Source: Candidatus Magasanikiibacteriota bacterium
Lineage (GTDB): Bacteria > Patescibacteriota > Patescibacteriia > Magasanikbacterales > UBA922
DNA length: 64,000 nt
Direction of reading: 5' to 3'
NCBI GenBank assembly: GCA_016207245.1
Contig: JACQQA010000009.1
Span: 9,165-73,164 of the forward strand
Shown here: piece after piece, positions 26,598 through 50,748 of the stretch
Position numbering within the stretch: the first letter of the stretch is position 1
How the letters are laid out: each line of letters starts with the position of its first letter
The notes under the pieces: model-generated
What the model saw: the letters and a program-made list of their open reading frames with translations, nothing else
Told to the model about the DNA's origin: nothing
Databases searched by the model: none
Position numbers and translations under genes: made by a program

Positions 26598-28589
26598 TTA
26601 TTTCAACAATCCAACAATCAACAGCGCCACTATGTTCGCCACTTTTATCATCGGATTTACCGCCGGACCGGCAGTGTCTTTGTACGGGTCGCCGACTGTG
26701 TCGCCGGTAACCGCGGCTTGATGCGCGAACGAACCTTTGCCGCCGTAATTTCCGCTTTCAATATATTTCTTCGCGTTGTCCCACGCTCCGCCGCCGGCGG
26801 TCATGGAAATCGCGACAAATAAACCGGTAATAATCGTACCCACCAACAAACCGCCCAAGGCCGCGGCGCCCAAAAATAATCCGACCAAAATCGGCGCGAG
26901 AACCGGAATCAGCGCCGGCAAAACCATTTGTCCGATCGCGCCTTTGGTAACAATATCAACGCATTTCGCGTAATCCGGTTTGCCATGTCCATCCATAATT
27001 CCGGCAATTTCTTTAAACTGCGTCCGCACTTCTTCCACCACTTTGCCGGCGACTTTACCGACCGACTGCATTAAAAGCGAACCGAATAAATACGGTAATA
27101 ACCCGCCGATAAATAATCCGGCCAAAACCAACGGGTCATCAATTTTAAACACTGAAGAAATCCCGCGCTCAACCAATTTATGAGTAAAGTCCGCGAATAA
27201 AACCAGCGCGGCTAAACCGGCGGAAGCAATCGCGTAGCCTTTTGTTACCGCTTTGGTCGTATTGCCAACCGCGTCCAATGGATCGGTGACTGAACGAACT
27301 TCTTCGCCCAACTCCGCCATTTCGGCGATGCCGCCGGCGTTATCCGTAATCGGGCCATACGCGTCAATCGTTACGATTATTCCAGCAAGTGAAAGCATTG
27401 CCATCGCCGCGATCGCCACACCATAAAGTCCGGCCAAGTTAAACGCGGCCAGTACTGCCGCCACAATAAAAATTACCGGCAGCGCCGTCGCTTTCATTGA
27501 TACTGCAAGGCCGGTAATAACATTCGTCCCATGTCCGGTTTCCGACGCTTTGGCAATTGATTTAACCGGCCCGTATTTTGTTGAGGTGTAATATTCGGTT
27601 ATCCAAACCATTAGTCCGGTTAAAATTAAACCGGCTAACGCGCTTCCCAATAATTGTTTAACTGATAATCCCAAATCTCCAGCATAAGCGCGGGAGGCGA
27701 AATAAAAACCGATTAAGGCCAATACCCCCGCGGCCGCCAGTCCTTTGTACAATGCGGCCATAATTTTTTTCTTTTTGCCAAGCTTGATAAAAAATGTGCC
27801 GATGATAGAAGCGATAATTGAAATCCCGCCCAAAATCAATGGAAACATAATCGCTGATTCATTGCCTTTGAAAGTCAGCGCGCCCAGCACCATTGCCGCG
27901 ACCGCTGTCACGGCGTAAGTTTCAAACAAATCCGCGGCCATGCCGGCGCAATCACCCACATTATCGCCGACATTATCGGCAATCACTGCCGGATTTCTCG
28001 GATCGTCTTCAGGAATGCCTTTTTCAACCTTACCAACCAAATCAGCGCCCACATCAGCGGCTTTGGTAAAAATCCCGCCGCCAATTCTGGCAAAAATAGA
28101 GATTAAACTTCCACCGAAGGCTAAACCGATCAAAGAATTGATGTCTTTAAAAATTAAATAAAAACCGCCGACACCCAAAAGCCCCAAACCAACCACCAAC
28201 AAACCGGTAATTGACCCGCCTTTAACCGCCACATCAAGCGCCTGCTTCAGGCCTTTTTTAGCGGCTTCGGTTGTCCTGACATTGGCTTTAACGGAAACGC
28301 GCATGCCCAAATAACCGGCCAAACCGGAAAACGCGGCGCCGATCAAGAACCCTAAACCGGTCTTCCAGCCCAAAAACCACCATAATACCGCAAAAAATAC
28401 CACCGCGACCAGCGCGATTGTGCTAAACTGACGTTTTAAATACGCTTTCGCGCCATCTTCAATCGCCCGCGCGATCGCTTGCATCCTGTCCGTGCCAGCC
28501 GGCAACTTATTGATTAAAAAAATAAGCGTGATTCCGTAAATAATCGCCGCCACTGCCGGTATGAGGACTAAAAGCCATGTTCCTAACAT
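26598..28589 (-). CDS. hppA: Membrane-bound pyrophosphate-energised ion pump
   Basis: 663 aa polytopic with [18 protein letters not shown] and DPYKDTAGP motifs. Confidence 0.97.
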
Positions 28590-35190: not shown

Positions 35191-35660
35191 AAAAAAGGCG
35201 GTCAAGCGCCCTAGGTAAATAACTTAACGGCGTGCCGCCTCAGTATCCCCAGGATACGCCTTTCAGGTAATCTAAAGGTGTTTTCCTCGCCACGCCGTAG
35301 TCCGCCCGAGGCGGACGAAGGCAGGCAAAAATACACTTAGAATACCTGAAACGCGACTGTCCTTGGGGACAGTAGTCTCCTTTCTACCGCCATAAGGTGG
35401 ACATTCCCGGCGATTCGGCCCGAAGGCACAAAACGCATAATGGGAAGTCACCGTTTCGAGCTAGCCATTAATTTTTGGCTTTTATTTTTGTTTCTTCGTC
35501 ACGCCGTAGTCCGCCCGAGGCGGACGAAGGCGGACACCCGATTGAGTCGGGAGCTAACGAATGGTAAGCTCGAAATTTGAGGTAGTAAAAAGGGAAGTGC
35601 TCCACCTGAATAAATTCAGAAGGAACAAATCCTGACTTTTAAAGAACAATTTTAAAGTAT
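35191..35660 (-). ncRNA. Candidate ~470-nt structured RNA of unknown class
   Basis: ORF-free region with a consensus promoter at 35667-35695 and a GGCG..CGCC + T6 end at 35191-35210. Many hand-paired helices, for example ACUGUCC-CCAA-GGACAGU, CCCGA-CUCAA-UCGGG, GUAUCC-UGGG-GAUAC, GGCGU...ACGCC. A ~36-nt hairpin module is duplicated. Confidence 0.6.
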
Positions 35661-48430: not shown

Positions 48431-48434
48431 TTTG

Positions 48435-48506
48435 AGGTACCGGCGAGAATTGCACTCGCGCATAGAGGTTTTGCAGACCTCTGCCTTACTGCTTGGCTAC
48501 GGTACC
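48435..48506 (-). tRNA. tRNA-Cys (anticodon GCA)
   Basis: Hand-folded: acceptor GGTACCG/CGGTACC, anticodon stem GAGGT/ACCTC with loop CTGCAAA, T arm GCGAG-TGCAATT-CTCGC. Confidence 0.8.
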
Positions 48507-48556
48507 GCGAATGTGGATATTCTAACATTTTTTTCAAATTAGTCAACCGGCAGCCG

Positions 48557-48660
48557 CAGAAATCAGAAGACAGATAACAGGATACATTTTTGTGAACGAT
48601 TTTTATCACTGTCGTCAATTCGCTGCATTTTGTTATCTGTATTCTGAATTCTGACATCTG
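48557..48660. repeat. P1 palindromic element, alpha core
   Basis: Arms cagaaatcagaagacagataacaggataca / tgcattttgttatctgtattctgaattctg. The core is near-identical to the copy at 39947-39983. Confidence 0.8.
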
Positions 48661-48662
48661 TC

Positions 48663-48691
48663 TTGACTTTTTTTTCGCCAACAAATATAAT
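48663..48691 (+). promoter_or_regulatory. Promoter TTGACT-N17-TATAAT for island 6
   Basis: Counted by hand. Confidence 0.6.
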
Positions 48692-48893
48692 TAACCCCAT
48701 CGTCTCGGCGAACCGAGGCAGACACAGCTCGTATGCGACGGGTTGCCGCATTTCGCGGTCTTTTCTCTACCTTGGCTGTCGTATTAAGGAGGACGGCAGA
48801 CGAATTTGGTGAATCCAAGGAATGAGACAAGAGCGTCTGGTTTGGCGAGTCGGACAGTGACAACACTGGTTCTCAACCAACAGAAAGGACAAG
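48692..48893 (+). promoter_or_regulatory. ~200-nt GC-rich structured 5' leader (candidate cis-regulatory RNA)
   Basis: Hand-paired stems GTCT-CGG-CGAA-CCG...AGAC, ATGCG...CGCAT, and CCTTGG...CCAAGG enclosing CTGTCGT-ATTAAGGAGG-ACGGCAG. Confidence 0.4.
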
Positions 48894-49325
48894 ATGAAGA
48901 AGATTCTCGGAATTGCAGCGGTTCTGCTCCTTTGTGGGGCGACCGCCTCTGCCAAGGCGACCGGTGTCGGTCCGCCTTCCAACGCGCGGGACTGTATCAG
49001 TATATGCTTCGGCGACATGGCGATCGGCGTGCAGGTCAATGGCGACCAGGCAGCCGACATCGGCGTGATCTTCAACGACACCGCGATCTTCATGGGCGCG
49101 ACTGACGGCGGCTTACAAGAGTACCTGCACGTCATACACATCGCGGCGACACAGCTCGAGGCCAACTCTGGCTCGGCAACGGGGGTGGACCTCCTGGGCG
49201 CCGGGAAGATTGACGCGGCCTTCTTCATGAGCGAGGATGAGGCGCAGCCTGTGTCCACGGCTGTCATTCACTCTCCGCCACCCGACCCCAACACCGGATT
49301 CCGTGGCATCACCAGCGTCGGCTGA
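48894..49325 (+). CDS. GC-rich island 6: secreted 143-aa hypothetical protein
   Basis: Signal peptide MKKILGIAAVLLLCGATASA. No family recognised. Followed by GGGAGGGC...GCCCTCCC and a CGCCC...GGGCG + T6 terminator. Confidence 0.55.
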   Translation: MKKILGIAAVLLLCGATASAKATGVGPPSNARDCISICFGDMAIGVQVNGDQAADIGVIFNDTAIFMGATDGGLQEYLHVIHIAATQLEANSGSATGVDLLGAGKIDAAFFMSEDEAQPVSTAVIHSPPPDPNTGFRGITSVG

Positions 49326-49580
49326 ACTGCTGCGTATCCTCGGGGGCGGTCGCCTCCGCTGTTCTTTCACACACCACGGGAGGGCTGAACAGACATGCTC
49401 TGACTTCGCCCTCCCAAACTCCCATAAAATCAAACCCGCCCCAAGCTTGCCGAAGGGCGTTTTTTATTTCGCCGACTTCCAACCATTCGTTGTTAATTGT
49501 TAGTTGCTCATTGCTAATTGTATTGTTAAGATGTAAAATTGTTTTAGTTAACAAGCAGGCTGTATGGTAATAATTCGTGT

Positions 49581-49613
49581 CCCCTCCCCTATGAGGGGAG
49601 GGTGAGGGTGGGG
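49581..49613. repeat. G/C hairpin CCCCTCCCC-TATG-AGGGGAGGG plus G4-type tract
   Basis: GGGG-A-GGG-TGA-GGG-T-GGGG on the plus strand. Left flank of the DUF559 gene. Confidence 0.6.
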
Positions 49614-49636
49614 TTTTCAAAGCACAATTTTTAATT

Positions 49637-50038
49637 ATGAAATTTGTTCCTTACTCAAACCAGAAAGAATACAAAAGTTTGCGAGTCGCTCTGAGAAAAA
49701 CACAGACGGATGCTGAAGAATTATTATGGGCATACTTGAGGAACAAGAGAGCAGGCTTTAAATTTCGCAGACAGCACGGGATTGGTAATTATATTGTTGA
49801 TTTTTATTGCCACCGCTCAAAAGTAATAATTGAGATAGACGGTTTTGTGCATGAAGATGACGGTGTGTTTGAAAAAGACAAAATTAGACAAGGTGAGCTT
49901 GAAAGATTGGGTTTTAAAGTTTTACGTTACACCAATAAGCAAGTTTATAAAAATTTAAGAGGTGTCTGGTATCACATAATTGAAGAGTGTAAACAGAGAT
50001 GTGGGCCATTAACCCCCTCCCGAACCTCCCCCTCATAG
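49637..50038 (+). CDS. DUF559 (Vsr-like endonuclease fold) protein
   Basis: TDAEELLWAYLRNKRAGFKFRRQHGIGNYIVDFYC...IEIDG...LRYTN is typical of DUF559. Confidence 0.8.
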   Translation: MKFVPYSNQKEYKSLRVALRKTQTDAEELLWAYLRNKRAGFKFRRQHGIGNYIVDFYCHRSKVIIEIDGFVHEDDGVFEKDKIRQGELERLGFKVLRYTNKQVYKNLRGVWYHIIEECKQRCGPLTPSRTSPS

Positions 50039-50046
50039 GGGGAGGG
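50025..50046. repeat. G/C hairpin CCTCCCCCT-CAT-AGGGGGAGG (right flank of the DUF559 gene)
   Basis: Paired by hand. Same type as the element at 49581-49602. Confidence 0.6.
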
Positions 50047-50061
50047 ACTGTGTCCGACCGT

Positions 50062-50748
50062 ATGAATCAAAAAAAATTTGTCATTATTGACGGCAACGCC
50101 ATCATCCATCGCGCTTACCACGCCTTGCCGCCGATGACGGTCAAGGGCACGATGGTGAACGCGGTGTATGGCTTCACATCAATGCTGTTGAAAGTGATTA
50201 AAGATTTAAAACCGGATTATTTGGCCGTTAGTTTTGATGTGGCGGGCGGAACTTTTCGCGATAAAGTTTTTGACGGTTATAAAGCCAAGCGCGTGAAAGC
50301 GGACCAAGAATTATATGATCAAATTCCGCTCGTGCATAAAGTTGTTGAGGCATTTGGTTTGCCGATTTTGAAAAAAGAAGGTTTTGAAGCTGACGACGTC
50401 ATTGCCACTGTTGTGGCTAAAATTAAAAATGAAAAAATCAAAATGAAAAATGTTGTAGTGAGTGGCGATATGGACTTACTACAACTCGTTGACGATGACA
50501 CGAGCGTTTACGCGTTAAGAAAGGGCATGAGCGATATTGTGATGTATGACGCGGAAGAAGTCCAAAAGAAATATGGTTTTGGGCCGGAGCATATTGTTGA
50601 TTACAAGTCTTTGCGCGGGGATCCGTCGGATAATATTCCGGGCGTGCCGGGGATTGGGGAGAAGACGGCGACGGAGTTGATACAGAAAGTTGGAGGGATT
50701 TATGAGATTTACAAACAAATCCGAAATCCGAAATCAAAAATCTACTGA
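50062..50748 (+). CDS. polA: DNA polymerase I, 5'-3' exonuclease (FEN) portion; the frame ends inside a heptamer repeat
   Basis: MNQKKFVIIDGNAIIHRAYHALPP...GIGEKTATELI. Stop at 50746 directly after the AAATCCG repeats. Confidence 0.9.
   Translation: MNQKKFVIIDGNAIIHRAYHALPPMTVKGTMVNAVYGFTSMLLKVIKDLKPDYLAVSFDVAGGTFRDKVFDGYKAKRVKADQELYDQIPLVHKVVEAFGLPILKKEGFEADDVIATVVAKIKNEKIKMKNVVVSGDMDLLQLVDDDTSVYALRKGMSDIVMYDAEEVQKKYGFGPEHIVDYKSLRGDPSDNIPGVPGIGEKTATELIQKVGGIYEIYKQIRNPKSKIY
50717..50744. repeat. Heptamer tandem repeat AAATCCG AAATCCG AAATCAA AAATCTA at the polA frame break
   Basis: Read directly. Removing the first two units (14 nt) fuses both polA frames. Confidence 0.85.

Follow-up and report, generated by a model that had tools for sequence, protein, structure and literature searches.

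What does an untranslated, structured leader of about 200 nt do in front of a gene for a fast-evolving secreted protein? The locus that raises this question lies in G000, a groundwater bacterium with a genome of 687 kb (45% GC, 12 contigs, 84% complete), whose relatives are annotated as Candidatus Magasanikbacteria, within the candidate phyla radiation (CPR). It was analysed within a 64-kb window, i.e., the whole stretch of DNA under study (G000:C9:9165-73164), and positions below refer to this window unless a contig or a locus is named. We consider it likely, with a probability of roughly three in four, that positions 48699-48862 form a functional cis-acting RNA leader, which probably controls the stability or the translation of its mRNA. 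As to how it acts, our tentative preference, drawn by analogy, is for a stabilising or ribosome-docking element resembling the STAB-SD of Bacillus thuringiensis.

The leader and its gene are flanked on one side by the gene of a 168-aa secreted protein and by tRNA-Cys, and on the other side by a DUF559 gene and polA; a class A PBP is also encoded nearby. The initial annotation had pointed to copper and thiols as candidate ligands given the context, and none of these neighbours, i.e., the class A PBP, the small secreted 168-aa protein, tRNA-Cys, the DUF559 gene and polA, bears this out. The same cassette, with the same promoter and the same leader, stands in the same neighbourhood in the congener Candidatus Magasanikbacteria RIFCSPLOWO2_12_FULL_43_12 (G145), which provides the sole homologous leader locus compared here. 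The tRNA-Cys gene is inverted between the two congeners (48434-48506 in the window and 2026-2098 of L004 in G145): in G000, it lies on the strand opposite to the cassette and has its own promoter-like site at 48546-48519, and in G145, it lies on the strand of the cassette, directly upstream of the cassette promoter, and has its own terminator. A genomic island inserted at the 3' end of the tRNA gene was considered and rejected, as the end of the tRNA-Cys gene nearest to the cassette is the 5' end in G000 and the 3' end in G145, no integrase is present and the cassette is syntenic across the genus. The DUF559 gene (a Vsr-like endonuclease, 49581-50062), which separates the cassette from polA, occurs only in G000, and polA directly follows a C-rich/G-rich hairpin in both the third congener, G146 (L013 240-300), and G145 (L004 1100-1200); thus, the DUF559 gene looks like an insertion beside this hairpin. 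Between 48900 and 49400, the GC content climbs to 62-64%, a peak that is not special on its own, since about 30 such patches of 60-70% GC are scattered over the genome, in which 33 windows of 400 nt reach at least 58% GC. These patches hold assorted genes, e.g., two histidine-phosphatase-like genes and large secreted proteins at C5:153-158 kb, and have no single obvious origin. Two segments at the edges of the cassette, 48588-48654 and 49423-49468, behave as repeats in groundwater runs, in which several other contigs, of higher summed depth, match them with 3-10 differences.

The consensus promoter reported in the initial annotation was found again in G145, where hexamers, spacing and relative place are the same, within a segment that is 75% identical overall. 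Its spacer contains a T8 run in G000 (48668-48675), which reads T5-G-T3 in G145, and no length variants of this run were seen among matching contigs. No further promoter-like site lies between this promoter and the ATG in either species. From the predicted transcript start near 48698 to the ATG at 48894, the leader measures approximately 196 nt, in agreement with the roughly 200 untranslated nucleotides first proposed, since an in-frame TGA at 48858-48860, 11 codons ahead of the ATG, rules out an earlier start of the ORF. The features of the locus are collected in Table 1.

Table 1. Elements of the leader, the secreted protein gene and its 3' region (window positions; helices P1 to P5 are predicted)
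Feature	Positions	Strand	Remarks
Sigma-70-type promoter	48663-48691	+	TTGACT-17-TATAAT, 11/12 consensus positions
Conserved structured core	48699-48862	+	164 nt; covariance model R1, 195 and 193 bits at the two loci
P1, 5' strand, or local 5'-terminal hairpin	48702-48724	+	Identical in G145; pairs with 48836-48856 in both minimum-energy folds
P2, variable hairpin region	48725-48759	+	G000: two hairpins; G145: one of 12 bp
Pyrimidine tract: P3, 5' strand, and candidate anti-SD	48759-48768	+	Pairs with the purine strand 48823-48832
P4 (CCUUGG/CCAAGG) and P5 hairpin	48770-48820	+	All pairs invariant in G145, sequence nearly identical
SD-like AAGGAGGA	48786-48793	+	Apical loop of P5, 101 nt upstream of the ATG
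P1, 3' strand	48836-48856	+	Substitutions at 48834 and 48846, at predicted unpaired positions
Linker	48863-48893	+	Invariant CAACCAACAG at 48874-48883; the gene's own SD AGAAAGGA at 48882-48889
Secreted protein gene	48894-49325	+	143 aa; Sec signal peptide, short repeat units, conserved C-terminal motif
3'-UTR element	49361-49425	+	About 65 nt: 8-bp G/C stem, conserved 22-nt loop, conserved tail
Terminator-like hairpin, then T6 run	49431-49468	+	Hairpin listed on the minus strand

The gene behind the leader is truly coding. Aligned with its only full orthologue, P0002 of G145 (116 aa, 38% protein identity), it shows identities of 0.73, 0.77 and 0.51 at codon positions 1, 2 and 3, all indels keep the frame, and the start, the signal peptide, the C-terminal motif and the stop all coincide. 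The divergence is unevenly spread, with 52% identity in the signal peptide, 24% in the mature middle and 78% in the last 18 codons. A clear signal peptide and no recognisable family had been noted from the sequence, and Pfam and NCBIfam indeed give nothing for the product, but the product does belong to a small family without a name. When 1.84 billion representatives were searched with a profile, about a dozen relatives were recovered, and a second search brought three more; this unnamed hypervariable secreted family (P0002-P0016) amounts to about 15 clusters among billions. Its members have in common a signal peptide, the motif TGPP and, close to the C-terminus, the motif AFIH, as well as short repeats that end in FMG and vary in number. 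They were seen only in metagenome contigs of the Magasanikbacteria/Uhrbacteria type, the named ones coming from Magasanikbacteria and Uhrbacteria, and include NCBI MBI5222560.1 and the HYV69 protein of Uhrbacteria. Among the species representatives searched (240 genomes of the order and 401 of the class), the gene itself occurs in G000 and G145 only; a protein match in G052 was discarded, as the family profile did not recover it. No protein relatives were found in viral contigs, and the structural models are unusable (AlphaFold2 pLDDT 45, ESM Atlas 0.33).

Downstream of the gene, the 3'-UTR element is present in all three genomes of the genus (in G145 at approximately 1225-1290 of L004, minus strand, and in G146 at 75-154 of L013) and is non-coding, as shown by a 1-nt indel in G145. 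In G146, it is the only part of the cassette found and lies at the start of a short contig, after the end of a different ORF, suggesting that an assembly gap accounts for the missing variable body of the gene. Copies of the terminator module that follows occur at G000:C3:26949-26994 and 27856-27896, and several other contigs match it in groundwater reads.

The comparison with G145 shows strong purifying selection on the leader. In the flanking genes, about 62-69% of synonymous sites agree between the two species, and the identity at four-fold synonymous sites is 0.59-0.69. The leader blocks 48700-48726 (26 of 27 positions, 96%) and 48763-48860 (91 of 98, 93%) lie far above this level (binomial P < 1e-10), which indicates strong constraint on both. 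Between and behind them, identity falls to 58% in the variable patch (48727-48762) and to 67% in the SD region (linker 48863-48893). The best 60-nt window of the leader, at 48786, is identical at 59 of 60 positions and ranks second among the non-coding stretches of the 82-kb contig (median 26/60), behind an orphan structured RNA at approximately 35190. Conserved and variable pieces of the leader alternate every 30-100 nt, which fits selection on RNA rather than a recombination tract. Conservation upstream of homologues, on which the earlier reading had been made to depend, is thus found at the one locus compared, where conservation of the leader far exceeds that of the gene. Coding was rejected as a cause of this conservation, since the short frames within the leader differ in phase and in end between the species, and an antisense 166-aa ORF (48767-49267) and a 77-aa ORF over the leader, neither of them conserved in frame, were set aside as by-products of high GC. 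Within G000, contigs from four groundwater DNA runs contained no variants inside the leader; two small groundwater runs have no cover over the gene, and this absence of cover is not evidence. Among RNA runs, none was found that contains the locus.

Searches for further copies returned little beyond G145. The initial annotation could not match the leader to any riboswitch class, and a search of 48500-49600 against Rfam 15 agrees with it, giving no match at the gathering threshold and, at E<=10, noise only, far below the gathering scores. A BLAST search with the leader in 401 genomes of the class and 107 of the family found nothing beyond G145, and the covariance model R1 found no further copy in the 107 family genomes and the window; its weak matches in the orphan RNA (35286-35333 and 35495-35542) are mere G/C hairpins and were rejected. 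An exact 21-mer of the leader hit only the contig of G145 and one chance match among metagenome contigs, and an exact 20-mer searched in 185,579 species hit G145 and four chance matches in high-GC genomes, which fail the covariance model. Two scans of viral collections for the leader gave nothing, and the back-translated N-terminal over-extensions of four distant members of the protein family show no resemblance to the 3' part of the leader beyond that of shuffles. By these searches, the leader is a new RNA motif that is confined to one genus.

The initial annotation described the leader as structured, which holds for the 164-nt core, more stable than shuffles in both G000 (-61.2 kcal/mol, z -2.6) and G145 (-63.7 kcal/mol, z -4.3), and with the same predicted architecture in the two species, i.e., a long closing helix P1, a variable hairpin region P2 and an arm P3-P4-P5; the full 214 nt do not stand out from shuffles in stability (z -1.4). 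The substitutions within the block 48763-48860 fall at predicted unpaired positions, and the arm P4/P5 contains a conserved 15-nt one-sided bulge at 48800-48814. P2 is more structured than shuffles in both of its versions (p 0.03 in G000 and 0.004 in G145), and all three base pairs that have changed on both sides lie in it; 38 of the 45 pairs never vary, and this covariation between two sequences is not significant, as 53 of 500 shuffles reach the observed level. The helices that had been picked out by eye fared unequally. The CCTTGG/CCAAGG stem (48770-75/48815-20) with its enclosed hairpin is present and invariant in G145. The AAGGAGG assigned to that hairpin does lie in it, in a 12-nt loop, about 7 nt to the left of the 48793-48800 first given. 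The capped stem at the 5' end does exist as a hairpin (48703-48724, -9.7 kcal/mol alone), but its CGAA loop is not a true GNRA loop and the best fold contains P1 instead; enforcing this local hairpin over P1 costs 2.6 kcal/mol in G000 and 5.7 kcal/mol in G145. ATGCG and CGCAT (48733-37/48747-51) are complementary as claimed, but are not paired with each other in the best fold and are missing from G145. In the linker, five bases of CAACCAACAG are able to pair with UUGGU (48806-48810) of the conserved bulge, and this invariant sequence may be part of a pseudoknot, an A/C-rich translation enhancer or a product of chance.

The sequence in the loop of P5 bears most directly on a possible function. 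AAGGAGGA is a perfect match to the 3' end of the 16S rRNA of G000, which ends CCUCCUUUCU; the SD of the gene itself has its complement at the extreme 3' end of the same rRNA. G145 keeps AAGGAGGA but has a different sequence in the 5' half of that loop. The predicted probability that it is unpaired is 0.76 and 0.68 in the two species. The start codon nearest to it is a TTG at 48806, 13 nt away, whose frame is not conserved, as its length differs between G000 and G145 and the changes within it are not codon-like. We regard AAGGAGGA as a putative decoy or stand-by ribosome-binding sequence. Such orphan sequences are not rare in themselves, with 32 of the 47 genomic copies of AAGGAGG not followed by a start. 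G000 encodes RNase J (TIGR00649, 486 bits, over the curated cut-off, G000:C4:11783-13423).

We propose that the core is transcribed from the strong promoter at 48663-48691 as the mRNA leader of the fast-evolving secreted protein and would act post-transcriptionally in cis, mainly by setting the lifetime of the mRNA and its loading with ribosomes. Protection by 5'-terminal stem-loops is the basis for the role given here to P1, which begins 3-4 nt from the predicted 5' end and may hinder attack on that end. A 30S subunit docked on the AAGGAGG of the loop might then block 5'-to-3' decay by RNase J, serve as a stand-by ribosome, or both. With less weight, the tract at 48759-48768 could pair either within the fold, which would leave the SD of the gene free, or with that SD, which would close it, and some signal could toggle translation through this choice. 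Stabilisation or docking is favoured because the loop matches the 16S rRNA, no usable start follows it, the loop is conserved and RNase J is encoded. The conservation of 165 nt, unpaired stretches included, exceeds what a stabiliser needs and speaks against a purely STAB-SD-like element. The leader reading as a whole draws on two independent sequences only.

The size of the conserved unit is also one reason for taking a sensing function seriously. The 165-nt core could be a lineage-restricted CPR sensor RNA, responsive to a ligand or to a protein, with the P1/P3-P5 fold as the sensor and control of the hypervariable secreted protein, plausibly a factor for host-cell interaction, as the output: with the fold formed, the tract would be held in P3 and the SD would be free, and with the local 5' hairpin formed, the tract would close the SD. 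This stays a minority possibility, kept alive by the conserved size, the unpaired bulge at 48800-48814 in a multi-helix junction next to a variable peripheral hairpin, two nearly isoenergetic states (2.6-5.7 kcal/mol apart) and a 9-bp duplex of tract and SD that can form in both species (-11.0 and -11.1 kcal/mol) although both partners differ. In the local-hairpin state, the tract indeed pairs with the SD in G145; in G000, the enforced alternative state leaves the SD without clear sequestration. Pairing between a pyrimidine tract and a purine tract arises easily by chance, moreover, and the lack of an Rfam match, of a candidate ligand, of an informative gene context and of significant covariation all weigh against a switch, as does the restriction of the motif to one genus, unlike nearly all validated riboswitches. 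Attenuation of transcription, which was also suggested initially, or control by a leader peptide is unlikely, indeed the least probable of the readings considered. The only terminator-like hairpin (48745-48759, with a U-rich tail to 48768 in G000) is part of the variable patch, and the G145 leader contains nothing equivalent, so that attenuation is not supported, and no T-box was matched. Short frames that open with an ATG in the variable hairpin do occur in both species, with lengths of 30 and 24 codons, but these frames lack an SD, read the conserved 48763-48785 in different frames and end differently; nor is the TTG frame behind the loop a better candidate, given its non-synonymous-type changes and its different ends in G000 and G145.

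Two further readings, each of them improbable, dissociate the core from control of the gene. The core might be a stable small RNA, separate or dual-function, which is processed out, with the downstream gene merely sharing its promoter. Its compact closed fold with paired 5' and 3' ends would suit such an RNA, as would conservation on a par with that of the other orphan structured RNA on the contig, and a 170-nt contig from an independent groundwater study, which corresponds to 48689-48858 without a difference, points weakly to the core as a shared unit. However, the core is not followed by a terminator in G000 or G145, and the ATG is only 31 nt away, which leaves no room for a second promoter, so that transcription of the gene has to pass through the core; the limitation to one genus further argues against a housekeeping RNA. 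The leader might also have no RNA function at all, if the flanks of a hypervariable gene were kept alike by recombination between lineages, as anchors for allele exchange, or if the conserved blocks were a site acting at the DNA level. The locus is conserved at both ends, in the leader with the signal peptide and in the C-terminus with the 3' element, and hypervariable in between, which speaks for this reading and resembles the layout of variable surface-protein loci. Against this, recombination tracts are coarser than the alternation seen within the leader, each conserved block is complementary to the other, the variable patch remains a hairpin despite its divergence, and the locus is single-copy in each genome. 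A cis-acting leader that stabilises the mRNA or docks ribosomes remains the preferred, though tentative, account.

In the STAB-SD of B. thuringiensis cry3A, a bound 30S subunit blocks RNase J1 (Agaisse and Lereclus 1996; Mathy et al. 2007; both as reviewed in PMC4113751). The present leader resembles it in having a perfect SD-like sequence that precedes the start codon by about 100 nt or more, is complementary to the 3' end of the 16S rRNA and does not start translation, in an organism that encodes RNase J and in front of a strongly promoted gene for an exported or abundant protein. However, the SD-like sequence of cry3A stands at the 5' end of a stable transcript, whereas here it occupies a hairpin loop within a 165-nt fold, about 88 nt inside the predicted transcript, which tells against a STAB-SD; the two sequences are unrelated. 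In Bacillus subtilis hbs, a structured 5' UTR couples ribosome binding to the action of RNase J1 and RNase Y (PMC5737220), and the two leaders have in common their length and structure, a helix near the 5' end and ribosome occupancy as the proposed means of protection. In hbs, pairing between the 5' and 3' UTRs is used as well, whereas no such pairing above shuffled 3' UTRs was detected here. The present sequence is unrelated to hbs and similar leaders, and it is confined to one CPR genus.

Other likenesses are of a more general kind. The ompA leader and the long leaders of S-layer genes are 5'-terminal stem-loop stabilisers, and like them, the present leader is long, structured, equipped with a helix near its 5' end and placed on the mRNA of an abundant protein. 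With translational riboswitches, it shares a conserved multi-helix core, a variable peripheral hairpin and a strand with two possible partners, one in the core and the other the SD, but it differs from them in having no Rfam family and no ligand, in being represented by two sequences of very narrow range, and in the low complexity of its alternative pairing. Variable surface (lipo)protein genes of mycoplasmas have a conserved 5' UTR and signal peptide before a repeat-variable body. We note the same combination here, i.e., a conserved leader and signal peptide followed by a hypervariable, repeat-built mature protein, also in a host-dependent organism with a small genome; however, the present gene is single-copy and has neither a lipobox nor a visible switch by inversion or slippage, and its conservation is between species, not between paralogues.

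Gene regulation has hardly been explored in the Patescibacteria (CPR), and few CPR-specific regulatory RNAs have been described. The locus is a compact and well-delimited candidate, in which a consensus promoter, a 165-nt fold and an SD-like loop precede the gene of a fast-evolving secreted protein. If the element is a stabiliser only, it would be of an ordinary kind in an unusual organism, and if the proposal is true, it would offer a ready-made expression part for the genetic tools under construction for the CPR. An element that stabilises or gates its mRNA would show how reduced genomes secure high or conditional expression of surface or secreted factors.
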